DNA from: Escherichia phage vB_EcoM-613R2
Sequence record: ON470591.1
DNA length: 26,627 nt
Reading direction: 5' to 3' (one strand)
A program made the position numbers and the translations under genes. The notes below the pieces were generated by a model, which was not told the DNA's origin, did not search any database, and saw only the letters and a program-made list of their open reading frames with translations. Positions 847 through 22,103 of this stretch are shown piece by piece; position 1 is the first letter of the stretch; every line of letters begins with the position of its first letter.

Positions 847-1427
847 CCCTGATTCATCAGCTCTGGCCATACGATATCCGGAGCTGTACTGGTGTCAATT
901 CTACTCACTAATACTCTGTATTTTCTCCAGGAATCCAGTTGTGAATTTTCCTCGTTTGTTGCTATTTCAAGATTAACTGCATCCTGCAGAATTGCGATGT
1001 TATCTGTTGCTTCCTGGATCAACCTTGCCTTTTTCTCTTCCGCTTCCCGTATCCGAAACAGTTTTTCTGCTTCCTCATCATTCACCCAGGATACGCCGTC
1101 CCACTTCTGATACTCCCCTGCTGGCGACAACCAGGTGACATTCTCTGGTAGCGGTCCGAGTTCAGAAATAAACAATGCGTCCCCCGACGCCACGTCATAG
1201 ACCGTTTTACCACGATGGTCTTCAACAATATTCCACGATTCATTTTCACTGTTAAAAACTGCCACAAAGCCAGCAGGAATTTCCGGTGGGGCGATATCTG
1301 TAGAATTAGCTGGCAGCCCTGTATGAGGTGGAATATATGCGTCACCTTCACCAATAAACTCATTAGTTCCGGCCAGCAGGTTATAAATTTTTACGGTACG
1401 TGATTGTTCACTCATTCTGAATGCCAT
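810..1427 (-). CDS. tfa: Tail fiber assembly protein (lambda Tfa family)
   Basis: The N-terminus [46 protein letters not shown] matches what I recall of lambda Tfa and the E. coli cryptic-prophage Tfa proteins. Its ATG overlaps the TAA of the tail fiber gene (TAATG), directly downstream of the fiber. Confidence 0.9.
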
Positions 1428-4273
1428 TATGCAAGCCTCACAATATAATTAAATGCGATGTTTTTAACGGTGTTTTCCGCGTTACCAGCAGCGTTAACGG
1501 TGATGGTGTGTCCATGTGAACCAATCTTAACAGAGTGCGTATGAGCGCCAATACCAACAGTGTGTGCATGTGCCCCAGCACTTGTAGCGGTACCTGATAC
1601 TGAGTGGGTATGTGCGCCAGAAGAAGGCACAGTTCCATTCCCCACCACCGTGCCACTTGATGAACCATCCAGCCAGTCGAAATTCATACCGCCACTGTTT
1701 GGTCTCCTTAATGGAACGGTATGAGTATGTGCGCCAGCACTATTTGCAGTACCAGATACATTGTGGGTATGTGCACCTGTGTTATTCGTTGATTTAGTAC
1801 CGTAATCAAACGACGATGTGGTTTTCGTACCCAAATCCGTACTGGATGCGCTGGCACTGTGGGTGTGCGATTTAATGCCATCCTGTTCCTGAGACAATAC
1901 GGCCCGACCACTGGCGGGTTTGCCCTTGATTGTCCAGCCGCGCATATCTGGAATAACACCAGAAGGATAGGCAATAGCCAGTTTCGGATATGCTGCCTTA
2001 TCAAACGTCTGCCCCTGCATGATTGCATAACCTGCAGGTGGCGTATCTGATGGCCACGGCAGCGGAACACCTGGCGGAAACGCTTCAATATTTGCCGAGC
2101 CGTCAAATTTTACGCCGTTAATTGTCCTTGCCGTTTTCAGCTTTGTTGCTGTAGCAGCATTGCCGGATAGTTCGCCTGAAAGACCACCGCTGAATGTCTG
2201 TTTCGCCATCCATGTCTGAGCTTCGTCGATAATTGGCACACGTCTTGTCGTGATCGTGCGGCTTCCCGGATTTCCTGAAATGCGAACCATAAAAAAGCGG
2301 TAGTTGGCTTTACTTACAGTGCTGCGCCATACATGCATTGAGCGTCCCGAACCAGAATCATCACTCGGACCGACTGAGATGTTTATCAGGTTGCCATCAA
2401 TGACGCCCCAGTCCATACCGTCGGGAATATTGGTCATGTTATCAAGCCGAACGGTTATCAGACTGCCCGGCACAAAATCGTAGGTCTGCCAGTCCAGGCT
2501 GGTGAGCTTTGCCACAGCACCGCCGATACCCAGATTCAGGGGAAGTGAATACGAGGTGTAGACTTCCCGCCATTCGCTCCATGAGCTGCCGGTAAAGACG
2601 CGCTCAAAGGTGCGGCCTTTAAGGGTTGTACCTGTTCCGGCAGTTGTATAACGCTGCCATACATTAACACCATCAAACCGCCTCAACACTTCCAGAATGC
2701 CGAGTACAGTCACGCCGTTTCCGTCCAGTACTGGACCGTTGGTCGCTTTACCTGTAACGCTGTAAATACCTGGTGAGGTTACATCATTCAAATCACCTTC
2801 GTAATAACGACTCTCTGACTGATGACCGACTCTTAACCACGGTTCCCACTGCGGATTTGATGCATCCCAGCTTGCCGCAAGACAGCGGACATACATATTT
2901 CCACGGCGAGTGGTATAACGTTGCGTTCTTCCATAATTTCCGCCTTCGAGGATCTCAAGCATCCCCTGAGCAAAGCCGCCTTCCTCTGGATAATTGCGTT
3001 CATATGAAGCTATAGCTGAGCTACTGTTACGCCATAAACCAAGATGCTCGGCGGCTCCAAGCGTATTCAGGTCTATAGTCGTACTCAAAGGGCGGGTAGC
3101 AGATTGAGTGTGACGCCATACGCCCCACGGACCATCAGTGCCATTCCACTTATTGGCGAGTTTACGCATGTATACATTGCCGTCTCTCGTGGTAAAGCGT
3201 TGCGTACCTGCAAAATGGCCGGCAGCAAAAACCTCAAGCACACCGACAGCATTATCTTCCGGGAAATTTTTCTCCAGTGTTGCGTTGGTGGATGTTGCTT
3301 TAGACCAGATACCTGAATAAGCCTTAACAGGACCAAACGTATTCAGATCAGCATCAAGCGGCATTTCGCCATTGTTTTTCATAAACGTCAGGCTGGTAAC
3401 GCCAACATTGTCCAGAAAAGCTGATTTATCCTGGATATCTGCACCGTTCTGATTTTTCGCCAGACGTGAATTTGCGTTGTCATTTGCTGCCTTGACCGCT
3501 TTTGGCGTTGCCGCCTGCGTTTCAGACGTACTGTTAGTGGCACTACTGAGCTGAACTATCCCTTTTTGTGCCGTGGTGGCATTCTGGGCGGTATATTTTC
3601 CGTCAGCCAGGTCATATGCAGCCTTAACAGCCTTAGGCGTCGCTGCGAGCTTTTCAGACGTGCTATTGGTGGCATTACTGAGTTGAACAATGCCTTTTGA
3701 TGTTAAAGTTGCATCAGGATGATTACGTGATTGCTCATGTTTTACAATAGCTTGCTTAAGCCGCTTTGCTGAAACAGCCAGGGAATCATCTGTACCTGCA
3801 TCAATTTCTTGTTCATTAGCAAATCTTGCTACTCCAACAACAGTTTCGGTTGCGGGAGGGTTAATAAACTCAACATCACCAAATGTAATGTTTTTAGTAT
3901 CAAGATTTTTAATTGCTATATCACTTGATATTAAAGCAATTGTAGAAGATGCTTTATTTATTATTACTTGTTCTTGCGAGTATACAGCAAACAATGTTCC
4001 TTTATTTGTATACAAACCTATTGTATGGACAACATACTCATCTTTACTATCATCCTTCGCAGTTACATGAATGGTATCAGGAGAAACGACTTTGCCTCCT
4101 ATTGTGGTAAGTCGCTTTATTTCATCTGTTATTTTTGTTTGTGTGGTTGATGTGGCATAATATCTACTACCTAAACCAACAGAAACGATCTCAACTTTAT
4201 TTGTTCCAGTCTTGTTGGCATTAACCAGCGCCTTACGCCCGGCGTCAGTCATCGTAAATAATAATTTACTCAC
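1427..4273 (-). CDS. Tail fiber protein (P2 H / lambda Stf-like long fiber)
   Basis: 948 aa. GTG start at 4273 preceded by AAGGA. Two tandem copies of the phage fiber repeat ([26 protein letters not shown]), internal R(F/Y)TTR.GN.Y.R repeats, and a His-rich C-terminus with repeated G-A-H-T-H-(S/N/T)-V motifs typical of fiber receptor-binding tips. Lies between the baseplate I gene and tfa. Confidence 0.9.
3476..3718 (-). repeat. Two tandem in-frame copies of the phage tail fiber repeat inside the fiber gene
   Basis: Protein residues about 186-222 and 231-266 are near-identical ([31 protein letters not shown] versus [31 protein letters not shown]); the underlying DNA is visibly repeated. Confidence 0.8.
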
Positions 4274-4303
4274 GCTTAATTCCTTGGATTAACAAATCGC
4301 AAA

Positions 4304-4885
4304 TTAGCACTCACCAATTAATCGTACATAAGACACAGGCTGGAAAGCACCGACAATACCAACACCACCTGAAACATTGGTTGCTTGCGAAAATGTAAAT
4401 AGTGTTCTTGCCGACTTTGCACTCTTGATACTTCTTAACGTATCCTCCAACATCTCTTTCGAAGGAACAGCACCATCAAAAGAGTTAATCGAAGCAACAA
4501 TTGAGGCTGTATATGGTTCGCCAGGTGGTGATGTTTCAAACCATTCTGTTATGTTTACCTCTCCACCCAAGCTATTTACTACATCTTCAACCGCTGCCCT
4601 TGTACCCTTTATTCGCTTTGTTCGTATTATTGATTTAAAAACAGAACGCTTTAACAATACAGGCCAACTATCCCTCCATGTATCAGCATTCCATTGCCAA
4701 GCTAAATGATCGAGAACAACTGAGTCCAGGTTATCAACAACGCTATATATTTCTGTCTTATATATTAAATTGTTAATTGCTTGTAGTTCATCATCAATAG
4801 CTTTCGACATAGCTATCACGTTGGGATCGCTAGCTAAGTTAGGAGGTAAAACATCCAACAAGCTAACATTAAAGATATCAGCCAT
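4304..4885 (-). CDS. Baseplate protein, P2 gpI-like (tail protein I)
   Basis: 193 aa immediately upstream of the fiber gene and downstream of the J-like gene, with an 8 bp stop/start overlap with J. Size and position fit gpI; the call rests mainly on synteny. Confidence 0.7.
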   Translation of the reverse strand: MADIFNVSLLDVLPPNLASDPNVIAMSKAIDDELQAINNLIYKTEIYSVVDNLDSVVLDHLAWQWNADTWRDSWPVLLKRSVFKSIIRTKRIKGTRAAVEDVVNSLGGEVNITEWFETSPPGEPYTASIVASINSFDGAVPSKEMLEDTLRSIKSAKSARTLFTFSQATNVSGGVGIVGAFQPVSYVRLIGEC

Positions 4886-6002
4886 CCTCTAACCCCGCAT
4901 ACTGGCAATTTATATTTCTCTCTCTGGCGACCTGTGTCTCTCCAATCACAGTAAAAACAGGACTTGATATTTCTAATCTTTTAGCCCCAGCATTTTTTAA
5001 ACGTTGAATAATTTCATCTGGATTTATATCTCTTCCCATAACCGAACGTTGCCATTGTTTATACTCATCAATAGCTTTCTCAACCTCACTTTGAATTAAA
5101 GTTGTTCTGTTTTTGTCCGATGAGTTAATCCAGTATTTAATTATTATATCGTATTCAATGCTCTCTGGTTTCTTAACAAGAACTTTATCTGTGAATGGTC
5201 GAATATTAGTTGCAGAGAGAACGCTATTTATCTGCTCTAATAGTTCATTAGAAGGTATATCTCCGTTCTCTAACAAAGAACGGATTTCTACAATTCCGGG
5301 CGATGGTGTATATACATTCACATCTTTTATATTCTGATTGGCTGTTCTTGTCCAATATTTATAAGAATCCTCCGGCCCTGCTGTAGACAGTTTTTCCGGC
5401 GACAGTTTTATTCTTTCAGCATAATTATCATCTGACTCCGTATCAGCACCAGAATTAGATGTTGTTACATTCCTTACGCTGGAAACATACGGCAACGGAG
5501 TCACCAACTCATTTATTTGCCCTGGTAAAAAGCCATTCCCAGATAAACCAGGTATAACAGCATATCCTGAGACTGTACCAACTGTTTTCCCAGCAGGTAT
5601 TTCCAACAAAATATCTGTTTGGAAAATAACACCATTTCCAGTTGAAACTTGAGTGCCAGCAGGTATTGTATATATCCCCGATAATTTTGTTGACAGATTA
5701 AACTCAAATGTAGTCAAGGCAGATTGAGCTTCCAGCCTAGGCGTATCCGTCAGATAGCCTATATGGTCGAGATATTCACCTTCACCATATGTAAGAAGGT
5801 TTTGTTTTGCAGAAAAATCGATAGCTTTTCTTTGCTGTATAATAATCTCACACAATGATAAGATGAATAATCTACGTGGATCAGCAGGTGCTAATGTTTC
5901 ACCTGTTATACTCTCAAAAGCCCTGATTGAACGAGTTGTTATATCAGTCGGGTTAGAATCTGCGAAAGTAATATCTGGCAAACCACCACGCGGCAACGTC
6001 AT
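4878..6002 (-). CDS. Baseplate protein J (P2 gpJ / Mu gp47 family)
   Basis: 374 aa; ATG overlaps the W-like stop (ATGA). Size and position match the baseplate wedge protein J that precedes gpI and the fiber in P2/Mu-type tails. Confidence 0.8.
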   Translation of the reverse strand: MTLPRGGLPDITFADSNPTDITTRSIRAFESITGETLAPADPRRLFILSLCEIIIQQRKAIDFSAKQNLLTYGEGEYLDHIGYLTDTPRLEAQSALTTFEFNLSTKLSGIYTIPAGTQVSTGNGVIFQTDILLEIPAGKTVGTVSGYAVIPGLSGNGFLPGQINELVTPLPYVSSVRNVTTSNSGADTESDDNYAERIKLSPEKLSTAGPEDSYKYWTRTANQNIKDVNVYTPSPGIVEIRSLLENGDIPSNELLEQINSVLSATNIRPFTDKVLVKKPESIEYDIIIKYWINSSDKNRTTLIQSEVEKAIDEYKQWQRSVMGRDINPDEIIQRLKNAGAKRLEISSPVFTVIGETQVARERNINCQYAGLEDG

Positions 6003-6319
6003 TCTCTAACTCCTATCACAAGTTTTGGCCTAATAAAACCATCAGAAACGTCCGTTCTTTCAAAAGTAACAGAATGGATAATCGCTCTAGGCTCAAACTC
6101 ACTAATTTTTTGAATTATTTCTCGTGTTGCTGTAGCAATAAAAATTGGACTAGGGCTATCAACAAGACTTGAATTAATTCCTAATTTTCTGGCATATGGT
6201 ACAGTGCCAATTTGAGTATTAATAATAGTAGAGACATTTTGCAAAACTTCTTCTACAACTGTTTTGGGCGACCAATCAATCGAGTAAGAAGGTGATGATA
6301 TGGTAAACGTATTATTCAT
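5999..6319 (-). CDS. Baseplate protein W (GPW/gp25-like)
   Basis: 106 aa, 4 bp overlap with both neighbours. Size and a hydrophobic/EPR core segment resemble P2 gpW; position directly upstream of J. Confidence 0.7.
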   Translation of the reverse strand: MNNTFTISSPSYSIDWSPKTVVEEVLQNVSTIINTQIGTVPYARKLGINSSLVDSPSPIFIATATREIIQKISEFEPRAIIHSVTFERTDVSDGFIRPKLVIGVRE

Positions 6320-6783
6320 AATAATTTACCTAACGCACTTCTAGTTTTTGACTCTATATTGCCAGCAATATCAACTAATGCTTCTTTCAGAGAGGTCTGT
6401 CCGACTTCCTGTAATTTAATGCCGACGATAATCACTCGTGGATTCCCAGTTGGACCGAAATAAGTCCATGATTCCTCTATATCTGTAATTATAAAATTAC
6501 CAAAATACTGAATACCAATTACAACAGGATTTACTTCCTGAATTGATTGCATTGTCCTAAGTAATGAAAGCGCAGCCAATGGAACAATGCCAAGTGTTGT
6601 ATCCAACCGCATATTAAAACTAACTTCATCCAGATCTGGACCTATATCCTCCAGAACAGGTTTAAGCCCAATAACATCATGGCGCGCTACACGACGCTTT
6701 GACGTCCTTTTAAAATTGTTGAACGTATTCACCACTATTGATGAGGCAACAAAAGGCATTGTACCAAGCATACCCACAATCAT
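6316..6783 (-). CDS. Hypothetical protein in the baseplate module (between the V-like and W-like genes)
   Basis: 155 aa, translationally coupled on both sides (ATGA overlaps). No motif I can recognise. A gene at this position is not part of the canonical P2 V-W-J-I order. Confidence 0.6.
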   Translation of the reverse strand: MIVGMLGTMPFVASSIVVNTFNNFKRTSKRRVARHDVIGLKPVLEDIGPDLDEVSFNMRLDTTLGIVPLAALSLLRTMQSIQEVNPVVIGIQYFGNFIITDIEESWTYFGPTGNPRVIIVGIKLQEVGQTSLKEALVDIAGNIESKTRSALGKLL

Positions 6784-7400
6784 GCCTGAGCCTCCGTTGT
6801 CGGAGCGTATTCCCCCTGAGCTGTGTGATGGTGGCCTTTAGATTTAATCCCATCAACATCTATATCACCACCAACAACCTTAACATTCCCAGAAATTGTA
6901 GCTGCAACACCTCCAGCAGAAGATCCTTTCATTCCACCTTTGAAGGTTAGTAATCCTTCAACTGTAGCATTTCCGGTAATGATGGTTTCTGGAGCATCAA
7001 TAGTTACGGTTCCTGTAGCCTTAATGGTTACATCTCCGACAGCATCAACAAGGAGTAAATTAGATTCTCTGTCTATCTCAATACGAGTTCCGTTATTAAA
7101 TCTAATGACGCGTTTATTAACAGTATTAGATGGCGGCTTCTGTGTTTCATCATAAAAACTACCAAGAATAAAACCTTGTTGCGGCCCCGCGGGATGAAAG
7201 ATACACAAAACTTGCTCACCAATATCTGGCATCCAGTAATCAGCATTCTTATCTGTATTTTTCACAATAACTGATAACTTTGCCGAAGTGACGTTATCCT
7301 GATCATCGAAAGTAACTCTTGCTGTAACATCACCATCATCAATATCAGAAACAACGCCAACTCTTATAGTCTGACGTAATAATGTTTCTAAATCATTCAT
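6780..7400 (-). CDS. Baseplate spike/hub protein, P2 gpV-like
   Basis: 206 aa. The N-terminal region (VGVVSDIDDGDVTARVTFDD) and a Gly-rich C-terminal half with repeated V-x-G-x-V segments and an HHH stretch fit gpV-type spike proteins; lies upstream of the W-like gene. Confidence 0.75.
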   Translation of the reverse strand: MNDLETLLRQTIRVGVVSDIDDGDVTARVTFDDQDNVTSAKLSVIVKNTDKNADYWMPDIGEQVLCIFHPAGPQQGFILGSFYDETQKPPSNTVNKRVIRFNNGTRIEIDRESNLLLVDAVGDVTIKATGTVTIDAPETIITGNATVEGLLTFKGGMKGSSAGGVAATISGNVKVVGGDIDVDGIKSKGHHHTAQGEYAPTTEAQA

Positions 7401-7402
7401 AA

Positions 7403-8404
7403 TTAATACCCATTAATTACTCTTCGGACATCAATCGAGGTGGTATAACCACTAGTCCCAATTGAATGCACAGCTTTCGATATAAGATATTTTCCAGAAA
7501 ATGAACCGAATCCCTCCAGATTTATAGTTACACCAGCTACCAATCTGGTGTCTCCAACCAATACTAAAGATCCGGTATTTTGATATCTATTTTTAAGCCG
7601 CAAAGCAGCCTTTGCCTTACGTTTTGCTTCATCTAAATTAGCTACCAGTTTTCTTATCTTAAGATTCGACCCTTCTTCTACGGATGGATCTACCCAAGTA
7701 TACGAAAGCGACTTTCTTTTTTTAGGTACGCGATATTTGCACGTGCAACTTTTATACAAATCTGTAGATTGTGTGCTAAAGCTATATCTGATTATCTCAT
7801 CAATACCTAACGTAAGCGTAGCGATAGGATCTTTTTGCTCAAACATCTCTTGAGCAAATATTATTAATTGGCTATCAGTGACCTTTAACGACAACCCTTC
7901 ATCCTGGCAAAGTCGATGGAGAAATTTTAAATCGCTTTCCTCCATTTGATCTTCACGCGCATAATATGGATTACTATCACCATCAATAAGAAACAACAGT
8001 TCAAGGTTAGCTAATTTAGCTATAGAAGTTGCTATATCTTTAAGAGTTGTTTTTTCCCATGCATTACTTTTTAAATCACGTCTAATGCCTGATGAAACAG
8101 GAACAGAAACAGCAGTTACCTCAACCACAGAAGGTGGTCCAGAGCAAGTTATGCCATCTACCTGGAATTTCCCGCACTCAAGGACGATTTGATTTATAGG
8201 CTTAAAGCTCAAATCAATAAAATCACCCTTTTTAGGTGTCCAGTCTCCAGACCATTTCCCATCATCATTTTTTAATATAATAGAAATATCATCGACCTGA
8301 CCATCTTCATTATCTGTATAAGACATTGACAAAACATCAGGTGACATATGAGCGGTAATATTTACATTCTGATATATAACATCAAAAAGCGTTTTACGTA
8401 ACAC
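7403..8404 (-). CDS. Tail/baseplate hub protein, P2 gpD-like (late control D family)
   Basis: 333 aa. GTG start at 8404 with GGAGA upstream. Positioned between the X-like and V-like genes as in many P2/Mu-type tail modules. Assignment is by size and synteny. Confidence 0.65.
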   Translation of the reverse strand: MLRKTLFDVIYQNVNITAHMSPDVLSMSYTDNEDGQVDDISIILKNDDGKWSGDWTPKKGDFIDLSFKPINQIVLECGKFQVDGITCSGPPSVVEVTAVSVPVSSGIRRDLKSNAWEKTTLKDIATSIAKLANLELLFLIDGDSNPYYAREDQMEESDLKFLHRLCQDEGLSLKVTDSQLIIFAQEMFEQKDPIATLTLGIDEIIRYSFSTQSTDLYKSCTCKYRVPKKRKSLSYTWVDPSVEEGSNLKIRKLVANLDEAKRKAKAALRLKNRYQNTGSLVLVGDTRLVAGVTINLEGFGSFSGKYLISKAVHSIGTSGYTTSIDVRRVINGY

Positions 8405-14961: not shown

Positions 14962-15353
14962 TACTTCTTATTACCTTTTTTTTGCGTTGATTTTTTCGCA
15001 TTACTGGTATCAGAAGTAGCTACAGATTCAGATGAATCATCAGCAACCATTTCCTCATTGCCGCCATCATCCTCAAACTCAACCTCGAATACACAGCTAC
15101 CCGCCTCCGTTCGCGTAATCAACCCCGCGTCCACAGCATCATTAACAGCAGATGCGTATCCATGCTCAAAAGCTAACTTAGCAGCATCATAGCCCCCAGC
15201 CGATGCCAAATCACCATCCTCTTCGGTGGCAATAGCATGTCCTGACGCAATCAGTTCGGCAATTCTGGAGTTATCCATTAGCCCATTAAGCAAACGGCCC
15301 GCTTTTAGCGAGCCGTGGCTTATCGTATCAATGTTTTTAATCAGTCTGGCCAT
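14961..15353 (-). CDS. Hypothetical head-associated protein with an acidic C-terminal half (lambda FI-like position)
   Basis: 130 aa immediately downstream of the major capsid gene. C-terminal half rich in D/E/S. Similar in size to lambda FI (132 aa) but no clear sequence similarity seen. Confidence 0.5.
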   Translation of the reverse strand: MARLIKNIDTISHGSLKAGRLLNGLMDNSRIAELIASGHAIATEEDGDLASAGGYDAAKLAFEHGYASAVNDAVDAGLITRTEAGSCVFEVEFEDDGGNEEMVADDSSESVATSDTSNAKKSTQKKGNKK

Positions 15354-16397
15354 TTAAACCACCTTAGCCACCAGATAGGCATCAGCCACACCAGGATTAG
15401 GCAGTGGAGATGACTTCATGGCAACATAACGGCCAGCCGGCTTACGAGTTACCCAGGTGTCTGGAACTCGTGGTGACTCAACAATCGTTAGAGTCTTTTC
15501 GGCGTCATCTACAAGCTCTACAGCACCATACAGCATCGTTCCTCGACCAGGAGAGCCAAAGAGGATCTTATCTTCCGGTACTAATGGTTCAGGTTTTCCT
15601 GTTTTATCATTGCGAATAAGTTCGTCGTAACCATAAAAATCGACACCTTCAAGATTGCCATAATGAGTTACGCCTTCTTCTAACTCTTTAGGCTCAATAT
15701 ACCCAAGCTCTTTTCGGCGATTATCAAGATATTTAGTTACTGCTTCATTTTTAACGAAGGCATCAACAACTTTTGCGCCCATTACGGCAACACGAGGTGT
15801 AAAACCTGAAGTTAGTGATACCCGACGTTTCCAGTTGCGAACATTGACTAACGGATCTGATTTTGCTGCACTCCATAAATCATCACCTGTCAGTTCAAGA
15901 TATGGTTTATCTCCTTCCTCTTCAGGCCAAAAATAAACTGTGTCATCCACTCCTTCACCAACAATATCAACCTGCCCCGTAAACAAGACTTGTGCACACA
16001 TCCATTCTTCACGGCGGTTAACCATTTCATCAAGCTCAAGCAAATCTTTACCTAATTGCTCGGCGGCTCGTTCTGCTGGCGATTTTGCGTTGTAAATATT
16101 CTCACCCGGAAGCCTGTTTAAAAGCAGCTCGGCTGTTGTTACCAAATCAGGTGCAACAAGTGGTGGCTCCAGAGTTCTCGTTACAAAGCCGCGTCGCTCA
16201 ACGGTTTTTGAGCCAAAACCTTTACCAACAAACGGAGCCATAGTACGGCCACCGCGAACAAAATCCAGATCAACTTTCTTTGTATTAAAGGTCTGAACAC
16301 CAGGAAAAAAGGTACGAAGAAGAAAACGACGAGCCTTGAAATTCTGAATAACAGGCTCAAGCATCGTACGTCGTTCAAAAATATCAATATTCGGCAT
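15354..16397 (-). CDS. Major capsid protein (lambda gpE family)
   Basis: 347 aa, close to lambda E (341 aa). Follows a decoration-protein gene as in lambda D-E. ATG start. Confidence 0.85.
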   Translation of the reverse strand: MPNIDIFERRTMLEPVIQNFKARRFLLRTFFPGVQTFNTKKVDLDFVRGGRTMAPFVGKGFGSKTVERRGFVTRTLEPPLVAPDLVTTAELLLNRLPGENIYNAKSPAERAAEQLGKDLLELDEMVNRREEWMCAQVLFTGQVDIVGEGVDDTVYFWPEEEGDKPYLELTGDDLWSAAKSDPLVNVRNWKRRVSLTSGFTPRVAVMGAKVVDAFVKNEAVTKYLDNRRKELGYIEPKELEEGVTHYGNLEGVDFYGYDELIRNDKTGKPEPLVPEDKILFGSPGRGTMLYGAVELVDDAEKTLTIVESPRVPDTWVTRKPAGRYVAMKSSPLPNPGVADAYLVAKVV

Positions 16398-16417: not shown

Positions 16418-16801
16418 TTATGCAGATGGATTTTGTTGTGCGGTATTAAGGAATATTCCAACCTTCCGGCAAGCCAGATATACATCGGCAACTTTTGCTG
16501 ATTCAGGAAGGATAACCGCATGTGCATTGAACATTCCGGTCAGCCATGCTGTTCCGACTTGCGCTGAATCAGTCGCATCAATATTGTGTTGAGCGATACA
16601 ATACGGTTCTTTTGCCTCCCCTTCACCAGAGAGATTTATTGGCGCCACAGTGACAACATTTGTTTTCTGATCAATACTGACAAAAGCAAGTAGCTCACCC
16701 CGTTTTACTTTACCGCTGGCAAGTTTAATACTTGTTGGAATTGCTGGCATACCACCAGAAATAATCAGATTATCTGGTTCAAATGAAAAAGACTCTCGCA
16801 T
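16418..16801 (-). CDS. Head decoration protein (lambda gpD family)
   Basis: 127 aa, the size class of lambda gpD, positioned between the protease/scaffold and major capsid genes. Confidence 0.8.
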   Translation of the reverse strand: MRESFSFEPDNLIISGGMPAIPTSIKLASGKVKRGELLAFVSIDQKTNVVTVAPINLSGEGEAKEPYCIAQHNIDATDSAQVGTAWLTGMFNAHAVILPESAKVADVYLACRKVGIFLNTAQQNPSA

Positions 16802-16810
16802 AAACTCACC

Positions 16811-17899
16811 TTAATTTTTATCGCGGTTTTTAAATACTGACCCAATAACATTTTTTACTGCTTCAGCCTGTTTGTTGCCGTTGTTTTCTGGTTGATTAAC
16901 ATCAACTGAATCATTCACCTCACTTGCGTCTTCTTGCCGTTGATTAAGAAAGTTTTTGTTACGCGCTCGCTCTGCATTCATAATTTCCAAAGCAAGTTCA
17001 GCCGCAGAAACTCCTGTTTTGAATTTTGCATTCTTAACCAGGTCGTCATGACCAGGAATCACGCTATTCTCGATTGTTTCAATGCGCTCGCGTTCTGATT
17101 TAACGCCCTCGTCTTTACCAGCATTAAAAACCTGATTGTATAATTCTGGATATTTATTTTTTAATTCATCAAGAGTCACAATATCGTCCTCATTTTGTTC
17201 ATTTGATTCAGTAGATAACTCATTTTTATTTTGCGGCAACTTTGCGAGTGAATCAGGTAATTTTGAAAACCTTGATGCTTCAAAAGTTATTCCATTAAGC
17301 GAAAGCATCCCTTCCTTTATAGAAGCGGATAAGCGTATTGGTTTTTCAACTTCGTCAGCAAATCCAAGCTCTACAGCCTCTTCTGCATTTAGCCATGTTT
17401 CCTGATCCATTAGTTCAATTAATTTATCCTCAGAAAGCCCTGTTTTCTCCTTATATGCAGATAAAATACTATTGCGTATCTTATCCATCATCTCAGCAAT
17501 ATCACGCAATTCATCCGCATCGCCAGCAGCAAATGTCCACGGATTATGGATCATCATCATAGAATTAGATGGGATAATAATTTTATCACCCGCCATTGCA
17601 ATAATAGTTGCAGCCGATGCAGCAATCCCGTCGATATAAACCGTAATATTCGCCTTATGACGCTTTAATGATGAAAGAATAGCTTGAGCAGTAAAAACAG
17701 AACCACCATAACTATTAATTTTTACGTTGATAGTATTTGATGAAATATCCTTTAATTTATTAACTATGTCAGAAGAAGAAACCTCATCAAATTCACCAAT
17801 ATACCCGTAAATTAAAAGCTCAGCCGGAGAGTCATCTTCACCCGTGCTATTTTTTATTTCCCACCAATTAGGCATCATCAGTCTCCATATTTTGTTCAT
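16811..17899 (-). CDS. Prohead protease, ClpP-like, with a C-terminal scaffold-like region
   Basis: The N-terminal 190 aa contain a ClpP-like core (INSYGGSVFTA ... DGIAASAATIIAMAGDK ... SNSMMMIHNP). The C-terminal about 160 aa are acidic and helical-looking. The true start may be the ATG at 17878 (M8), which has a GGAG Shine-Dalgarno and avoids a 32 bp overlap with the portal gene. Confidence 0.85.
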   Translation of the reverse strand: MNKIWRLMMPNWWEIKNSTGEDDSPAELLIYGYIGEFDEVSSSDIVNKLKDISSNTINVKINSYGGSVFTAQAILSSLKRHKANITVYIDGIAASAATIIAMAGDKIIIPSNSMMMIHNPWTFAAGDADELRDIAEMMDKIRNSILSAYKEKTGLSEDKLIELMDQETWLNAEEAVELGFADEVEKPIRLSASIKEGMLSLNGITFEASRFSKLPDSLAKLPQNKNELSTESNEQNEDDIVTLDELKNKYPELYNQVFNAGKDEGVKSERERIETIENSVIPGHDDLVKNAKFKTGVSAAELALEIMNAERARNKNFLNQRQEDASEVNDSVDVNQPENNGNKQAEAVKNVIGSVFKNRDKN

Positions 17900-19442
17900 T
17901 TACCTCAGAAACAGGAGGTGTAATAAGCCCCAACTCACGGCGAGCATTCTCTTCTCTGCCACAGATTTGTGCGGTTTCTTCCCAGTTAAGACCTGACATT
18001 TCAGCCGCTTCTTTTTCACGGGTAGAGAATGTTTCCTCAACACGCAGTTTTGCAGCTTTGACTTCTTTAAGAGGATCTAATTGGCCTTGTGATGGGCCAT
18101 ACCATTGAGCGCCACTCCATGCAGCGCGATATTCAGGCCCATAAAAAAAACCAGGGGCAATAACACGACCTTTAGCAACGGCTTCGGCCAACCATTCCTC
18201 ATAGATCGGTTGGCAAAATGACTGAACCATCCAGTCACGTCGCATACGGAACATTTTCCAGGCTTCAAGTAATGCGGCCCTGCTTGCGCTATAACTTGCT
18301 GTAAAATGCTTTACCAAGAGTTCGTAAGGGAGTTCTAAAGCAGCCCCAATTTGACGGCATATGGCGACAACAAAACCATCAAATGCCGTATTTGGTCGCC
18401 CGGGATTTGCTGTATCTATCGACTCACCTTCACCCAAACTTACTATGGAGCCATTCCCCATTTCTTGGGTGTTATCATCATGGTTATCGATCTGCTCGTA
18501 CTGAGGGATACCCGATTCACCGACTGGCCCATCAGGAGCGTCTGTTTTAATAAAGACAGTAAACATCCCTGACACAACCGCAGCAACCAATTCAGCATCG
18601 GTGTATCGCCCTAACTGCTTCAATGCTTCAATTACAGGAGCAAGGACAGGAACGCCACGGCGTTGCCCAGGCCTTTCAAAATCCTGCATGACATGCAGAA
18701 TATTTCTTCTTCCTGTTTTACTCCCATATGCGGGAATACGTTCCCACTTGCGGGTTACAAAACCAGAAGTCCCGGCTGGGTGATGTTTTGCAACCCAGTA
18801 CGCCACAGGCTCGCTAAATTCACCAACCTCTACGCCACCGTAAAGATTTGGTATAAAACGATCCTCTGGATTGCAAACACGATCACCTTCAATTAAATAG
18901 ACGCACAAATCATATATAACACCCTTACGCTTAATAACTGGTAGCGCAGCAAATATATCGCCAGATGTTAACGCAGATATTTGGACCAATGATTGCAATT
19001 GTCCAAAAGTACACATTCTTGATGCATCACAATTTGGAGAATCAGCCCATAATCTAAACTCACGCTCAACATGCTTTTCCCATGCTCGCGCTTCTTCCTG
19101 CGTCATCCCCAAGAAATCGGCATCAATGTTCGCATTTAGTTTTAAACCGGAACCAACAACGTTTGTCCTGATAGTTTTTATTGCGCCAACAGATAGCGGG
19201 TTTCCCATGAAGAGATCACGAGAACGCTCACGCAATTTATCTATATTTTTAACAATATCATCATCAGGAGAACCAGCTTTACTAAACCAACCCCTTAATG
19301 ATTTTTTATGAGTGCTTGCACCATGACGTGAATATCCAAGGTTATTAATACCTTCAAGTGCTTCTAACCGTTTTCTTGCCAAAGCTCGATTTAATGCCCT
19401 CTGAGGTGAAAACGGCGCAATAACTCGATCAAGAATATTCAT
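17868..19442 (-). CDS. Portal protein (lambda gpB family)
   Basis: 524 aa between the gpW-like and protease genes; ATG overlaps the upstream stop (ATGA). Size and synteny fit a lambda-family portal. Confidence 0.85.
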   Translation of the reverse strand: MNILDRVIAPFSPQRALNRALARKRLEALEGINNLGYSRHGASTHKKSLRGWFSKAGSPDDDIVKNIDKLRERSRDLFMGNPLSVGAIKTIRTNVVGSGLKLNANIDADFLGMTQEEARAWEKHVEREFRLWADSPNCDASRMCTFGQLQSLVQISALTSGDIFAALPVIKRKGVIYDLCVYLIEGDRVCNPEDRFIPNLYGGVEVGEFSEPVAYWVAKHHPAGTSGFVTRKWERIPAYGSKTGRRNILHVMQDFERPGQRRGVPVLAPVIEALKQLGRYTDAELVAAVVSGMFTVFIKTDAPDGPVGESGIPQYEQIDNHDDNTQEMGNGSIVSLGEGESIDTANPGRPNTAFDGFVVAICRQIGAALELPYELLVKHFTASYSASRAALLEAWKMFRMRRDWMVQSFCQPIYEEWLAEAVAKGRVIAPGFFYGPEYRAAWSGAQWYGPSQGQLDPLKEVKAAKLRVEETFSTREKEAAEMSGLNWEETAQICGREENARRELGLITPPVSEVNEQNMETDDA

Positions 19443-19678
19443 AAATCTCTTATCACCACTCGTTTAATTCGTGGGCCTCGGCGTACACCTGCTGATAATC
19501 TTTCTACTTCATTACGCCAGTAATCCATCTCTTTTCTGACTTCTGATAAATCCGCACGAGTTAACTGCCGCGTACCAAATTTATATGACTGACCGCCAAT
19601 AGCAATAGCGCGATATGCTTCCCGCCAGACAGATAACATCTCTCTGGCTTCAGTCAGAGAAAATGCTTCATTGTTCAT
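19439..19678 (-). CDS. Head-tail joining/head completion protein, lambda gpW-like
   Basis: 79 aa small basic protein between the large terminase and the portal, the lambda W position. Confidence 0.7.
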   Translation of the reverse strand: MNNEAFSLTEAREMLSVWREAYRAIAIGGQSYKFGTRQLTRADLSEVRKEMDYWRNEVERLSAGVRRGPRIKRVVIRDL

Positions 19679-19689
19679 TTATATTTCCT

Positions 19690-21546
19690 CTATATGGTTA
19701 CGCCTTTACTTATAACTCTACGGCGTCTTCTACGTATACCTGACGAGTTCTGCACATACACATTACCTCGCATTTCCTGTTCGGCAAGCCAGTTAAAATT
19801 AGGGTTCAGAATTTCCATCGCGGCAGTTGCATAGTTACGGCAATCAAGAGGCTCGTTACGCTCGTAGACTTTCACCCACTTTTCTTTTGTCTGCCCATTT
19901 TTATATTCAAATATTTTTTTCTCTGATAATAATCCTTTAAAGTATTCGGTATCATATCCTCTGTCAGAATCTAATGGGAAATGCATATAACCAGGACCAG
20001 GATCATGTAGTTTAATTCTTGCCATGATGGTCCCTTTACCATCATCAACCCCCAAATTAAACAACATAGCACCCACACGGTTATTATTACTTGGCTTTCC
20101 TATAAATGGTAAACCTACCCCACCACGCCCCCTGATAGAGTATATTCGCCTTGATTCTCTCGGCTTAGTAAAGCGATATACCTCTGTCGTAAAATGCCCA
20201 CCAGAGTCAATACAAACGGAAGAAATCTGTAATTTTCGACCGTCACGGAATGACCAGCTACGGAGTAAGTATTCATCAAGTTGTTTCCAGACAACATCTT
20301 GTGCGGGATCACCTGGGAATATTTTATATTCTATCCCCCATGACTCCTTACCTTTTCCCCAACCGACCAATTCACAAACTAAATACGTGTCCTGTACGTC
20401 AACACCAGCACTTAACAATAAAACATCATCTGGTAAAAACTCTTCAAACCTTATTCTGCGTTGCAACAAGTATTCAGGATCGATATCGTCTTTAGCATCC
20501 TCTTTCCATGGCTCACCCAGCTTAAGGTTAATAAACTCCATTAATCCATTTTTATCGCGGTTTCTGGTTGCTTCCGTAAATTCTTCAACCAGCTCTGACA
20601 ATGCAACCCACGGGGAGTAAAGACTGTTAATATGAAAACCAACAATACCTTTAACTCCAGTATGTTCAGCTATCCATACCCCCTTCGCCAACCAATCAAC
20701 GTCTGGTTTACCAGATCCGCGCATAATCCCGCCGCACTCACAGCACTCATATCTGGCCGTTTCCGGTAACGCCTCACCTGAATCGCTCTTATCCCATCTG
20801 ACTTGCGACCATTTCATCACCTGCATGGTGCCACAACATGGGCAAGGAACATGGTAGTAACGCTGATCGGAGAGCTTAAACCACTTGTGGATTTTGCTTG
20901 TTTCCTCCAAAACAGGAGTAGAAACAAAAACTTTCTTACGATTATGAAAGTTGGTAGTACGCTGAATACCTAGTTTTAGTGGGTCGCCCTCCTGCGTCAC
21001 ACCGTAACGATCAATCTCATCACCTAACAGTATTCGAATTGGCCTGGATGCAAGACCTGCTGGGGAATTAGCACCAACAAGTGCTATATATCCACCAGCG
21101 TAATGCTTCATACGTATAGTCGTGCTGGACTTTTTGGCTGCACCGCGCCCCTCTTTCCCTTCATGCAGCTTGTGTTTCAAACCAGGGGAATATTTGAACG
21201 TCGGATCAATACGCTCTTTTGAAAAAGCCTCAGCCGCCTCTACCGTTGGATAAATCATCAACTGAGGAGATGGCTCCTGATCTGCAAAGTAACCCATAAC
21301 ATTTAGCTGTAATTCGGATTTACCAATTTGCGAGCTACATTGCATCACTACTGTTTCTGTATCAGCGTCACCAATAACATCCATTGGTTCACGCAAATAT
21401 GGCACTCGGCTTGTACGCCACGGCCCTGGCTCTGGAGACGTTCCCGGCGCTACATGACGATACTTATCAGCCCATTCGGAAACAGTTAGCCGTGATTTAG
21501 GGCGAAGCGCACGGAAAAAAGCGGTGCTCCATACTGTTTCGCCCAT
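19690..21546 (-). CDS. Terminase large subunit (lambda gpA family)
   Basis: 618 aa. The N-terminus (TVSEWADKYRHV) resembles the lambda gpA N-terminal region. Cys-rich pairs (CPCCG, CCECGG) are present. Sits between the small terminase and the gpW-like gene. Confidence 0.9.
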   Translation of the reverse strand: MGETVWSTAFFRALRPKSRLTVSEWADKYRHVAPGTSPEPGPWRTSRVPYLREPMDVIGDADTETVVMQCSSQIGKSELQLNVMGYFADQEPSPQLMIYPTVEAAEAFSKERIDPTFKYSPGLKHKLHEGKEGRGAAKKSSTTIRMKHYAGGYIALVGANSPAGLASRPIRILLGDEIDRYGVTQEGDPLKLGIQRTTNFHNRKKVFVSTPVLEETSKIHKWFKLSDQRYYHVPCPCCGTMQVMKWSQVRWDKSDSGEALPETARYECCECGGIMRGSGKPDVDWLAKGVWIAEHTGVKGIVGFHINSLYSPWVALSELVEEFTEATRNRDKNGLMEFINLKLGEPWKEDAKDDIDPEYLLQRRIRFEEFLPDDVLLLSAGVDVQDTYLVCELVGWGKGKESWGIEYKIFPGDPAQDVVWKQLDEYLLRSWSFRDGRKLQISSVCIDSGGHFTTEVYRFTKPRESRRIYSIRGRGGVGLPFIGKPSNNNRVGAMLFNLGVDDGKGTIMARIKLHDPGPGYMHFPLDSDRGYDTEYFKGLLSEKKIFEYKNGQTKEKWVKVYERNEPLDCRNYATAAMEILNPNFNWLAEQEMRGNVYVQNSSGIRRRRRRVISKGVTI

Positions 21547-21551
21547 GAGGT

Positions 21552-22103
21552 TTATTCTTCCTGCTTAATAAATCGGGATTCCTGGAGCGCCTGAAGCGCA
21601 AAATTAATCTCGTCTTCAATAATGCGCTCGATCTCCCTGGCTGTTTTGCCTTCACAACGGGGAGCTGCTCTTGGAGCAATACTAAATAAGCGGCTACGCA
21701 ATTCATTAGCTGCCAGAAATGCATCATCCCTGACCGCATCTTTAGCGATGAGAGAGCCTTCCTTTTCTTCAAATTCAAGGCGTTTCAGCTTTGCCTGATA
21801 AATTTTTTCTGCGGTCTTAGCCTTGTTGAATTGCACCGCAACACCGGAAGTACCACCAGCTAATCCGGCATCATCAGCGGGTAACTCTGGTTGTTCCGAA
21901 GATATCCCATGCCCTCTTTTTCCATTTTCAGCAGATACCTCACGACCAACCTGTCGGCTCGCTTCATAAGCCGCACTGGCTTTATCAAAATCCAGCTTGC
22001 CGCTTTTCAGCACTGGAATGCGACCGGAACGACAGAGCTTCGTAACCATTGCCGGAGAAATACCTTTCCGGCGGGCAAACTCTGACTTACTGACGATGGC
22101 CAT
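21552..22103 (-). CDS. Terminase small subunit (lambda Nu1-like, N-terminal helix-turn-helix)
   Basis: I place the start at the ATG at 22101-22103 (MAIVSKSEFARRKGISPAMV...), which overlaps the upstream TAA (TAATG). The ORF track opens 9 nt earlier at a TTG. The N-terminal HTH followed by PVL.SG.K resembles Nu1. Confidence 0.75.
   Translation of the reverse strand: MAIVSKSEFARRKGISPAMVTKLCRSGRIPVLKSGKLDFDKASAAYEASRQVGREVSAENGKRGHGISSEQPELPADDAGLAGGTSGVAVQFNKAKTAEKIYQAKLKRLEFEEKEGSLIAKDAVRDDAFLAANELRSRLFSIAPRAAPRCEGKTAREIERIIEDEINFALQALQESRFIKQEE

Follow-up and report, generated by a model that had tools for sequence, protein, structure and literature searches.

A lambda-like head and contractile tail that appear inherited as a pair, and a recently swapped fibre tip, in an Escherichia coli phage-plasmid

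Lambda-family packaging and head genes followed by P2-family contractile tail genes raise the question of whether a virion was assembled recently from two phages or inherited as a whole. We addressed this question in a stretch of 26,627 nucleotides from Escherichia phage vB_EcoM-613R2 (ON470591.1), hereafter the window. Very probably, the window holds, in full, the late gene block for virion morphogenesis of a temperate myovirus that persists in E. coli as a phage-plasmid (circular, ~48 kb), with an inherited pairing of head and tail and one recent fibre swap. The element is ordinary and already known, as a previously sequenced 48 kb phage-plasmid of E. coli; its combination of a lambda-like head with a contractile tail is old and widespread, and only the tip of the tail fibre was recently swapped in.

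Composition of the late gene block

The genes of the block all lie on the minus strand and run in one direction (Table 1), and Pfam and PHROG profiles place the lambda-family packaging and head genes and then the P2-family tail genes where the original prediction had put them. That prediction missed the gpU-family gene between V and W, and the terminal Tfa that it named is present, although outside the start at 1427 that it gave for the locus. Its labels "Nu1-like", "gpW-like" and "FII-like" rest mostly on gene position.

Table 1. Annotated features of the window, with supporting evidence (E-values unless noted otherwise; percentages are identities)
Feature	Coordinates	Strand	Evidence
ParB/Srx N-terminal-domain protein	22103..22693	-	Pfam ParB_N 3.8e-8; stop overlaps TerS start
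Small terminase subunit (TerS), Nu1 position, N-terminal HTH	21552..22103	-	phrog_57 terminase small subunit 7.4e-42
Large terminase, lambda gpA family	19690..21546	-	Pfam GpA_ATPase 1.6e-75, GpA_nuclease 1.1e-84
Head-tail adaptor, gpW position	19439..19678	-	Pfam DUF6148 7e-16; phrog_118 head-tail adaptor 7e-29
Portal, lambda family	17868..19442	-	Phage_portal_2 7e-101; lambda gpB 27%, 4e-44
ClpP-type head maturation protease, C-terminal scaffold-like extension, lambda gpC/Nu3 position	16811..17875	-	CLP_protease 6.7e-32
Head decoration protein, gpD position	16418..16801	-	phrog_49 head decoration 7.4e-25
Major capsid protein, gpE family	15354..16397	-	Phage_cap_E 1.5e-55
130-aa acidic protein, lambda gpFI position	14961..15353	-	phrog_5541
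Probable head-closure/stopper protein, gpFII position	14617..14961	-	phrog_2551; weak phrog_82 "head closure Hc1" 3.6e-5
Neck or tail-completion virion protein, lambda gpU position	14135..14620	-	phrog_2581 virion structural protein 2.6e-63; function suggested by position only
96-aa protein directly upstream of sheath gene	13844..14134	-	phrog_4089; 32-34% aa, equal position in Vibrio relatives
Contractile tail sheath	12381..13844	-	phrog_23 tail sheath 2.8e-96
Tail tube, P2 FII family	11843..12364	-	Phage_tube 5e-44; P2 FII 28%, 8e-13
Tail assembly chaperone pair E / E+E'	11403..11833	-	Phage_TAC_7 1.5e-5
Tape measure protein	8605..11397	-	PhageMin_Tail 1e-20; P2 gpT 31% over 182 aa, 5e-8
Tail protein X, LysM-like	8394..8612	-	Phage_tail_X 2.3e-4, 21.1 bits vs cut-off 22; P2 gpX 0.002
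Baseplate hub, gpD family	7403..8404	-	Phage_GPD 2.7e-9, YQBQ 1.6e-6; P2 gpD 3e-15
Baseplate spike, gpV family	6780..7400	-	Phage_base_V, Phage_spike ~3e-7 each; P2 gpV 7e-17
gpU-family tail protein	6316..6783	-	Phage_P2_GpU 2.1e-22; P2 gpU 2e-4
Baseplate wedge, gpW/gp25 family	5999..6319	-	GPW_gp25 8.9e-5, under cut-off; P2 gpW 5e-4
Baseplate protein J	4878..6002	-	Baseplate_J 6.2e-54; P2 gpJ 8e-21
Baseplate/tail protein I	4304..4885	-	Tail_P2_I 1.8e-26; P2 gpI 2e-13
Chimeric tail fibre	1427..4273	-	N-terminal part (~3571-4273) phage-plasmid lineage; distal part to ~3570 from P2-like prophage gpH
Tail fibre assembly protein, Tfa/gpG family	810..1427	-	Caudo_TAP 1.1e-39
Hexapeptide-repeat acetyltransferase	283..846	+	Hexapep 1.1e-12; convergent overlap with Tfa 3' end
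Single imported block	30..3570	.	gpU 3' remnant, acetyltransferase, Tfa, distal two thirds of fibre

The ParB-domain protein is 58-62% identical to the products of the genes upstream of TerS in the Vibrio phages Rostov 7 and PVP-XSN; gene 1 of PVP-XSN likewise carries ParB_N, and the position directly upstream of TerS is kept in the Vibrio relatives. A Pfam search of the small terminase gave no Nu1 match, while its top match by hhalign was residues 3-33 of lambda Nu1 (E=0.0017, P=15%). Membership of the large terminase in the gpA family, taken only by itself, points to putative cos-type packaging. The adaptor is unrelated by sequence to lambda gpW, with no similarity detectable in profile alignment. 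The protease, whose start agrees with RefSeq (L007), gives a weak Pfam match to Peptidase_S49 (4e-5) and aligns with the lambda gpC profile over 258 columns (P=93%, E=2.8e-7). For the decoration protein, Pfam HDPD scored 19.4 bits, under the cut-off, and lambda gpD was the top hhalign match (E=0.0018). The closest solved relative of the capsid protein is a 341-residue chain named "Major capsid protein" (7vi9, E=6e-17), and from size and family the head is predicted to be isometric and T=7-like.

The neck comprises four small proteins, of which the 130-aa acidic protein is fast-evolving and restricted to the enterobacterial branch (48% amino-acid identity in a Salmonella plasmid), with no homologue among the Vibrio or Firmicutes relatives compared. 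The product of the next gene is probably the head-closure or stopper protein: its top hhalign match was lambda FII, in register (E=0.002), and the top, non-significant fold matches of its low-confidence model (pLDDT 63) were 114-residue chains in two lambda neck/portal entries together with a siphophage stopper-terminator entry. The sheath has no match in Pfam; it matches the pyocin R2 sheath PA0622 among PDB entries (5e-15) and P2 FI at 28% identity over the C-terminal 144 aa (E=7e-12). The predicted E/E' frameshift was borne out by a T_TTT_TTG heptamer at 11567-11561, four codons before the stop, where a -1 shift joins the ORF at 11552-11833 to a -1 frame ORF extending to 11403; the identical heptamer occurs in P2, at the annotated frameshift site, and in seven relatives across phyla.

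The element and its carriers

Escherichia phage vB_EcoM-473R2 (ON470610) is 100% identical to the window over 2072-22693, and the circular plasmid p23AR1217C (NZ_CP195374; 47.9 kb) is 99.9% identical to it. These two, like other 47-49 kb E. coli plasmids (the ECONIH1 plasmid NZ_CP009861 and the ATCC 25922 plasmid NZ_CP009073), share the whole structural block at 99.5-100% nucleotide identity and in like gene order, and the plasmids add repA, parA, a RelE toxin-antitoxin pair and lysis genes. At least 80% of a 25 kb query was held by 47 of 5426 complete E. coli genomes, the best 25 of these 47 records all being replicons of 47-49.6 kb, and PLSDB contained 63 matching plasmids, all non-mobilizable. 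The Yersinia phages vB_YpM_39, vB_YpM_41 and vB_YpM_44 (OR545053-5; 49 kb), deposited as phages isolated on Y. pestis EV76, are 98% identical at the nucleotide level over 3486-23106, and share with the window head, neck, tail and a plasmid-type backbone including the HigB toxin. Phage P1 has the same lifestyle, that of a myovirus kept as a plasmid (PMC7969092), a comparison of lifestyle and not of sequence. While electron microscopy has been reported for the Eco_473 lysate, its source strain has several prophages (bioRxiv 10.1101/2022.06.29.498070), and the element described here is known from its genes.

Such a plasmid might carry a defective element, either a decaying prophage remnant or a tailocin-like cluster from which infectious phage is no longer made. 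In keeping with this, a gene of the lambda gpZ family, which sits in the neck region of relatives, was looked for in the enterobacterial branch and is absent there, which could alter or impair tail completion, and p23AR1217C has a few pseudogenes, namely incomplete copies of Tfa and of an ORF6N gene. Yet the near-identical Yersinia genomes are on deposit as those of isolated phages, each of the 24 structural ORFs is intact and abuts or overlaps its neighbours as in relatives, dozens of plasmids preserve the block at 98-100%, holin and endolysin genes accompany it on the plasmid, and a full head module argues against a tailocin. We therefore consider a defective element very improbable, and retain the reading of a temperate phage-plasmid.

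Origin of the head and tail pairing

If a lambda-like head and packaging module had recently recombined with a P2- or Mu-like tail, from hosts of unlike base composition, the best classical reference should differ by module and GC should shift at the borders. The first is indeed the case, with lambda the best reference for TerL, portal and capsid and P2 for the tail. The likeness to lambda covers gene families and their order (TerS, gpA, adaptor, portal, protease/scaffold, D, E and the FI and FII positions), at 28% amino-acid identity for gpA (over 599 aa, E=7e-61), 27% for gpB and 25% for gpE (E=3e-19); lambda differs in having a non-contractile tail and an S49 protease, where the window has a contractile tail and a ClpP (S14) protease. 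The likeness to P2, and to R-type pyocin, covers the tail families FI, FII, E/E', T, X, D, V, U, W, J, I, H and G at 25-31% identity, but P2 distributes its tail genes over two operons (V-W-J-I-H-G and FI-FII-E-T-U-D) with X in a third, whereas they are contiguous in the window, and the P2 head genes Q, P, O, N, M and L have no counterpart in the window. Mu shares the contiguous order of sheath, tube, chaperone, tape measure, hub, spike, wedge, fibre and Tfa, as well as an invertible fibre segment like that of relatives of the element; its sequence similarity is marginal (gp45 E=0.006, gp47 E=9e-5, none for sheath or tube), and no Mu-type head or transposition genes are present in the window. 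With identities of only 25-31% and no nucleotide-level match to lambda or P2 outside the fibre, the resemblance to both is one of family only.

The composition figures of the original prediction are numerically right (GC 0.435 in head genes, 0.389 in tail and baseplate genes, p=0.006, and 0.50 in the distal fibre), but their use as support for separate origins of head and tail does not hold. The gap between head and tail is significant at the first and second codon positions (GC1 p=0.008, GC2 p=0.04) and not at the third (p=0.13), the same direction recurs in 4 of 4 distant relatives, and GC per gene correlates with that of the Rostov 7 orthologues (Spearman 0.71, p=3e-4), thus the gap reflects protein composition rather than origin.

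Relatives point the same way. A Salmonella plasmid carries head and tail collinearly at 64-90% amino-acid identity (head genes 84-88%, tail genes 78-90%). The Vibrio phages X29, Rostov 7, XM1 and PVP-XSN, of the proposed family "Weiviridae" (PMC11432961), are collinear with the window from the ParB-domain gene and TerS through gpI (head genes 26-66%, tail genes 28-57%) and share the TTTTTTG frameshift site, but have integrases, no annotated plasmid replication genes and unlike fibres; myovirus morphology has been seen for XM1 by electron microscopy (PMC11432961). Every gene from TerS to gpI has a collinear homologue in Rostov 7 and PVP-XSN, and most have one in vB_EalM-137 and Saumur; two Firmicutes phages hold both modules in collinear order. 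Among prophage loci fetched with the sheath profile (61 testable, in a whole set of 552), 40 of the 61, mostly from Bacillota, have the ClpP and gpE head upstream of the tail. For each gene from TerS to gpI the best non-identical relatives lie in these shared lineages, largely the pattern that the original prediction had itself named as evidence against separate sources, and relatives at 64-90%, 26-66% and 21-54% identity all have both modules, similarly diverged. A recent hybrid is thus largely refuted and has next to no probability left; judging from these comparisons, the pairing is very probably inherited rather than recently assembled, as the original arrangement in a large lineage to which the Salmonella phage-plasmid, the Vibrio X29/Rostov 7/XM1 myoviruses and many, mostly Bacillota, prophages belong.

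An older exchange is another matter. In 19 of the 61 loci the head is of another type, in which the gpA terminase and lambda-family portal are accompanied by a protease-capsid fusion of the Phage_capsid_4 family, and heads and tails have therefore been exchanged somewhere in the history of the lineage. Brevibacillus fortis has both head kinds in one genome (loci L028 and L029), with tails equally similar to that of the window (sheaths 49% and 50%), and orf114 and orf161 of the neck stay with the tail, homologues of the neck or tail-completion gene adjoining the sheath gene in both head classes. These observations are compatible with a single ancient chimera, to which one ancestor contributed a lambda-type head and another a P2-type contractile tail, the combination then being passed on as a unit. 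However, the data give neither the direction nor the number of exchanges, and the gpZ-family gene of relatives (in PVP-XSN between the FII-like gene and the orf161 homologue) extends the lambda-like order past the head and through the neck, so that there is no clean seam between lambda and P2. Over the 40 same-head loci, the identity of the portal to that in the window shows no correlation with that of the sheath (Spearman -0.17), which is uninformative either way. We hold such an ancient chimera to be possible, though on balance doubtful. The original proposal of modular assembly from different sources accordingly fails at the head-tail junction, but has substance for this deep-time exchange of heads and for the recent import of distal fibre and Tfa.

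The imported distal fibre block

Inheritance of the pairing from TerS to gpI leaves one real recent exchange, in which the distal fibre, Tfa and acetyltransferase came from a P2-like chromosomal prophage. Positions 30-3570 align with a P2-like chromosomal prophage of E. coli CFSAN018748 (L096) in one continuous blastn alignment (95.6% over 3549 bases), Tfa also being 95.6% identical at the nucleotide level to the P2-like prophage. At the fibre gene, vB_YpM_39 and the ATCC 25922 plasmid match 3480-4400 at 91% identity, and P2-like gpH matches 2118-3570 at 93%; P2-like gpH alleles reach 93-96% nucleotide identity with the distal fibre of the window. The homology breakpoint near 3570 coincides exactly with a jump in GC3, from 0.26 in the N-terminal part to 0.46 in the middle part, and Phage_fiber_2 repeats (Pfam) are located at the junction. 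The only nucleotide similarity to lambda is in fibre tip and Tfa, the latter matching the tfa of the lambdoid phage mEp332 at 82-85%.

The acetyltransferase is a cargo gene that arrived with the fibre block; it adjoins Tfa in the P2-like prophage, and vB_YpM_39, the ATCC 25922 plasmid and the Salmonella plasmid all lack it. The fibre cassette is present to at least 80% in 88 E. coli genomes, and the best 40 records comprise 25 plasmid-sized replicons (46.9-57.5 kb) and 15 chromosomes. ATCC 25922-type plasmids and others match the window only from 3479 onward and have another fibre end with a recombinase-invertible Tfa cassette where the window has the P2-like block, and the three Yersinia phages, unlike the window, have their own distal fibre with a Hin invertase and alternative Tfa genes. 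The distal fibre, Tfa and Hin-invertible fibre cassette that belong to the lineage have given way to 3.5 kb of DNA from a P2-like prophage of E. coli, with the crossover in the conserved fibre repeat near 3570, and this swap presumably retargeted the host range of the phage.

Phage-plasmid identity and distribution

The stretch 2072-22693 is 100% identical to the partial record of Escherichia phage vB_EcoM-473R2, and 3486-23106 shares 98% identity with three 49 kb Yersinia phages, vB_YpM_39, vB_YpM_41 and vB_YpM_44. Of the 5426 complete E. coli genomes compared, 47 contain at least 80% of the 25 kb query; the best 25 of these records are all replicons of 47-49.6 kb. Plasmid p23AR1217C (NZ_CP195374), circular and 47,945 bases long, matches the window at 99.9%. 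It has repA and a ParA-family gene, and it encodes a RelE/ParE toxin-antitoxin pair, a GH108 endolysin and two holins; the plasmid genes lie outside the window. In PLSDB, 63 plasmids match, all typed as non-mobilizable, from E. coli, E. albertii, E. fergusonii, Klebsiella aerogenes and Salmonella, the plasmid of ATCC 25922 (NZ_CP009073) included. Since phage structural and lysis genes sit together with replication and partition genes on one circular replicon, gene content identifies the region as the part of an approximately 48 kb phage-plasmid that encodes the virion. The 98% identical Yersinia phage genomes were deposited as those of phages isolated on Y. pestis EV76, thus infectious virions may be produced.

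No paper on the three Yersinia phages was found, and searches with phage names, plasmid accessions and ATCC 25922 found no description of the 47-49 kb group as a phage-plasmid in the searchable literature. The pSLy3 group proved to be SSU5-like and unrelated.

Head, neck and tail genes

Features of the virion gene block and gpZ-family genes of its relatives
Feature	Coordinates	Strand	Family evidence
gpU remnant	30-125		
Hexapeptide-repeat acetyltransferase	283-846	+	
Tfa	810-1427	-	
Fibre, 948 aa	1427-4273	-	
X, D, V, gpU-family, W, J, I	4304-8612	-	Pfam and blastp to P2 proteins
Tape measure	8605-11397	-	
Chaperone	11552-11833, -1 frame extension to 11403	-	
Tube	11843-12364	-	PF04985, 5e-44
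Sheath	12381-13844	-	phrog_23, 2.8e-96
Four small neck genes	13844-15353	-	
Capsid protein, gpE family	15354-16397	-	PF03864, 1.5e-55
Decoration protein	16418-16801	-	PHROG head decoration, 7e-25
ClpP-type protease with C-terminal extension	16811-17875	-	ClpP S14, 6.7e-32
Portal, lambda family	17868-19442	-	PF05136, 7e-101
Adaptor, gpW position, 79 aa	19439-19678	-	DUF6148; PHROG head-tail adaptor
Large terminase, gpA family	19690-21546	-	PF05876, 1.6e-75; PF20454, 1.1e-84
Small terminase	21552-22103	-	PHROG 57, 7e-42
ParB/Srx-domain gene	22103-22693	-	
gpZ-family gene, PVP-XSN	8648-9211		Pfam Minor_tail_Z
gpZ-family gene, vB_EalM-137	27300-27866		Pfam Minor_tail_Z
gpZ-family gene, Saumur	23157-23717		Pfam Minor_tail_Z
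gpZ-family gene, Brevibacillus fortis prophage L029	8676-9233		Pfam Minor_tail_Z

The original prediction of a lambda-type head followed by a P2/Mu-type contractile tail was confirmed in gene content and order, with small corrections, by Pfam, PHROG and comparison with reference phages; the genes concerned all lie on the minus strand, each abutting or overlapping the next. The large terminase contains both the ATPase and the nuclease domain of the gpA family (Pfam) and shares 28% identity with lambda gpA (blastp, E=7e-61), the portal shares 27% with gpB (E=4e-44) and the capsid protein 25% with gpE (E=3e-19), and direct comparison with the reference phages gave no match of these three proteins to P2 or Mu proteins. 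The best solved relative of the capsid protein is 7vi9, a 341-residue chain named 'Major capsid protein' (E=6e-17). The best Pfam family of the protease is ClpP S14, S49 scoring 24.1 bits, just under its cut-off of 24.9, and the profile alignment with lambda gpC (P=93% over 258 columns) indicates that the two are homologous, yet of different subfamilies.

The smaller proteins gave weaker signals. The decoration protein scored 19.4 bits against PF02924 (cut-off 29.1), and its top hhalign match was lambda gpD, weakly (E=0.0018, P=15%). No Pfam match to Nu1, gpW or FII was found among the window head proteins; PHROGs label a terminase small subunit, a head-tail adaptor and, weakly, a head closure protein Hc1, and hhalign ranks Nu1 and FII first and in register with P only about 15%. 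Profile comparison of the small neck proteins with lambda, P2 and Mu proteins was convincing for ClpP against gpC only, with Nu1, D and FII ranked first but weak, and returned nothing for the gpW-position protein, for orf161 (14135-14620, at the position of lambda gpU) or for orf96 (13844-14134). For orf114 (14617-14961, at the gpFII position), sequence search against solved structures produced chance matches only; the single-sequence AlphaFold model had a pLDDT of 62.8, and Foldseek matches to phage neck, portal and stopper-terminator entries, among them chains in lambda neck and portal entries, were suggestive but not significant (E>=0.04, TM about 0.3). A 130-aa acidic protein at the lambda gpFI position (14961-15353) is fast-evolving: its amino acid identity to the counterpart in the Salmonella relative is 48%, compared with 64-90% for the neighbouring proteins. 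In PVP-XSN it is replaced by an unrelated Rho_N-domain protein.

Several relatives of the element have one neck gene more. In PVP-XSN, vB_EalM-137, Saumur and the Brevibacillus prophage, a gpZ-family gene, above the Pfam cut-off, separates the FII-position gene from the neck gene after it, a site equivalent to 14617-14620, the junction of orf114 and orf161. No gpZ homologue was found anywhere in the window or in the full plasmids searched, the E. coli and Yersinia-phage elements being devoid of a gpZ-family gene replicon-wide, and the annotation of the Salmonella plasmid shows no gene at this place. The lambda-like order therefore runs on into the neck of the relatives, leaving no seam between a lambda part and a P2 part.

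The ParB/Srx-domain gene overlaps the start of the small terminase gene and occupies the same place in Vibrio relatives (58-62% amino acid identity), thus it may be part of the packaging module and not a plasmid partition gene. The window also has two other genes with a ParB domain, at 23986-25982, one of which is a methyltransferase fusion. At 22694-23249, upstream of the ParB-TerS genes, an intergenic region of 555 bases consists of a GC-rich part followed by an AT-rich part, and the three Yersinia phage records begin inside it, at window position 23106 or 23094, which makes it a candidate for both a cos site and a late promoter region.

The tail was recovered from sheath to fibre as predicted, together with a gpU-family gene between V and W that the prediction had not listed. 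The sheath matches P2 FI (7e-12) and the tube P2 FII (8e-13), and the best solved relative of the sheath is an R-type pyocin sheath (5e-15). All seven members of the baseplate set (X, D, V, U, W, J and I) were found both by Pfam and by blastp to P2 (E 0.002 to 8e-21), and these, together with the sheath, tube and tape measure, share 25-31% amino acid identity with P2. The possibility of a tailocin was ruled out because a full head module is present. The proposed E/E' frameshift holds as a sequence signal: a T_TTT_TTG heptamer lies at 11567-11561, four codons ahead of the chaperone stop, and the -1 frame stays open for about 55 codons more. The same heptamer marks the annotated P2 E/E' site, and T_TTT_TTG or TTTTTTA occurs shortly before the chaperone stop in 7 relatives ranging from Salmonella to Clostridia, thus E and E+E' chaperones, the latter with a predicted length of about 143 aa, are expected to arise by -1 frameshifting on T_TTT_TTG.

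Descent of the head-tail pairing

It had also been proposed that the modules came from different sources and that shifts in base composition between them support this. At the head-tail junction, however, the best-hit lineage is the same from TerS to gpI, which speaks against the proposal there. A Salmonella Weltevreden plasmid has the same backbone (amino acid identity for TerL 88%, portal 86%, capsid 84%, sheath 84%, tube 90%, D 85% and J 78%), and the Vibrio myoviruses Rostov 7 and PVP-XSN have a collinear homologue for every gene from TerS to gpI (TerL 63-65%, portal 66%, capsid 45-46%, sheath 49-53%, tube 54-57%, J 45-46%). The Firmicutes phages vB_EalM-137 of Exiguobacterium and Saumur of Enterocloster have most genes in common with the window (portal 54%, capsid 36-41%, sheath 41-45%, J 37-40%). 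In a comparison with the proposed 'Weiviridae', which comprise the Vibrio phages X29, Rostov 7, phi2 and XM1, identities over the structural block were 26-66% at the amino acid level, and synteny with both Rostov 7 and PVP-XSN was complete. Electron microscopy showed XM1, which is closely related to Rostov 7, to be a myovirus with an icosahedral head (PMC11432961).

No window head protein matched P2 Q, P, O, N or M by blastp, and the contiguous tail genes of the window depart from P2, in which they are split into operons, thus the layout is not that of Peduoviridae. Mu gp39-gp50 follow the same contiguous order as the window (sheath, tube, chaperone, tape measure, hub, spike, wedge, fibre and Tfa), but sequence matches within the sheath-to-baseplate set are limited to gp45 (E=0.006) and gp47 (E=9e-5); blastp found no match of window proteins to the Mu sheath, tube or hub, and P2 matches are stronger than Mu ones throughout the tail. 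Further matches, of the fibre and Tfa to Mu S (2e-16) and Mu U (4e-12), fall in families that are widely shared. A Mu-like transposable phage was ruled out by the lack of Mu head and transposition genes and by the marginal similarity to Mu. The layout of the window follows the order general to tailed phages, with the tube gene preceded by that of a sheath and with a complex baseplate.

The composition shift is real, but it does not speak to origin. Mean GC is 0.435 in head genes and 0.389 in tail genes (Mann-Whitney p=0.006), a difference located at the first (GC1 0.556 against 0.487, p=0.008) and second (GC2 p=0.04) codon positions and not significant at the third (GC3 0.331 against 0.290, p=0.13). 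Head GC exceeds tail GC in 4 of 4 distant relatives, and the GC of single genes correlates with that of their orthologues in Rostov 7 (Spearman 0.71, p=3e-4) and PVP-XSN (0.49, p=0.02). Because the effect lies at GC1 and GC2, recurs in relatives and is shared by orthologues, the head-tail GC shift reflects protein composition and not DNA origin. The structural genes at 4304-22103 are mostly several GC points below their orthologues in the Salmonella plasmid L095, with a whole-replicon GC of 0.446 in the E. coli element and 0.477 in L095, and GC3 of single structural genes in the window is 0.20-0.41, far under that of E. coli genes.

On a longer time scale, heads have changed partners. A profile of five sheath proteins scanned against one genome per species yielded 552 relatives, and the best 80 of these 552 loci, mostly Bacillota, were examined, 61 of them with 8 kb or more of sequence ahead of the sheath gene. 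In 40 of the 61, the same tail genes are preceded by the head set of the window (ClpP protease, gpE capsid, lambda-family portal), and another head is joined to the same tail and neck genes in 19, comprising a gpA terminase, a lambda-family portal of only 22-34% identity and a 667-aa fused protease-capsid (Phage_capsid_4). Across the 40 loci, the correlation of portal with sheath identity was uninformative. Brevibacillus fortis NZ_CP176370 contains two prophages, L028 with the ClpP and gpE head and L029 with the fused protease-capsid (Phage_capsid_4), whose tails are similarly related to that of the window (sheath 49% and 50%, V 50% each, J 47% each); this pair is a natural example of head exchange on the window's tail lineage. 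Given the 19 of 61 loci with another head and the presence of both kinds in one B. fortis genome, head modules have been exchanged on this tail lineage at some point, which lends limited support to modularity in the long term and none for the recent history of the element.

We tentatively propose, with rather low confidence, that the 47-49 kb plasmids of E. coli (ATCC 25922 included), E. albertii, E. fergusonii, Klebsiella aerogenes and Salmonella Weltevreden form a phage-plasmid group undescribed as such. They would be the enterobacterial branch, carried on plasmids, of a myovirus lineage that crosses phyla and also takes in the Vibrio 'Weiviridae' and numerous prophages, for the most part of Bacillota; in this branch a lambda gpZ-type tail-completion gene kept by all sampled relatives would have been lost, with infectious particles apparently still formed.

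The fibre block and particle assembly

Modularity in recent time concerns the fibre and not the pairing of head with tail. Positions 30-3570 form one alignment block, 95.6% identical over 3549 bases, with a chromosomal P2-like prophage of E. coli CFSAN018748, in which the end of gpU, a serine acetyltransferase, Tfa and the fibre gene follow one another exactly as in the window, where the imported block comprises the gpU remnant, the acetyltransferase, Tfa and the distal two thirds of the fibre. The crossover falls in a conserved stretch of fibre repeats (Pfam Phage_fiber_2, residues 233-274): the fibre upstream of 3480 shares 91% identity with the Yersinia phage and with the ATCC 25922 plasmid, and GC3 rises from 0.26 to 0.46 at the crossover. 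In relatives without the P2-like block, its place is taken by an invertible cassette that encodes a Hin-type recombinase and contains another Tfa gene in inverted orientation. The assignment of Tfa as lambda-type is sound at the family level (82-85% nucleotide identity to tfa of the lambdoid phage mEp332), but the alignment identifies a P2-like prophage as the immediate source of the Tfa and fibre block. The acetyltransferase, which came with this block and is absent from relatives with the invertible fibre, is convergent with Tfa, overlapping its 3' end by 37 bases, and may be a lysogenic-conversion gene.

Gene families, gene order, the frameshift signal, plasmid carriage and the fibre breakpoint were computed directly, and from what is established for these families the particle would be assembled as follows. 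The terminase would cut the DNA and package it via the portal into a gpE-type shell, matured by the ClpP protease with its scaffold-like tail and stabilised by the D-like protein; the adaptor and FII-like stopper would close the portal and take the tail. The tail would rest on a hub of D, V, U and X with wedges of W, J and I. The tape measure, together with the E and E+E' chaperones, would set the length of the tube, around which the sheath would lie, and the chimeric fibre, folded with Tfa, would select the receptor.

Among tailed phages, the joining of a lambda-family head to a contractile tail is common and long established; a literature search on this combination found nothing usable. The finding matters little as originally framed, because the sequence has been deposited many times, as phage and as plasmid, and the architecture is common. 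The searchable phage-plasmid literature does not appear to treat this phage-plasmid, which is widespread in E. coli and occurs even in ATCC 25922. The element is also a useful case of an inter-module GC shift that stems from protein composition rather than foreign origin, and of a recent, precisely mapped fibre swap from a P2-like prophage to a phage-plasmid, with a likely change of host range.
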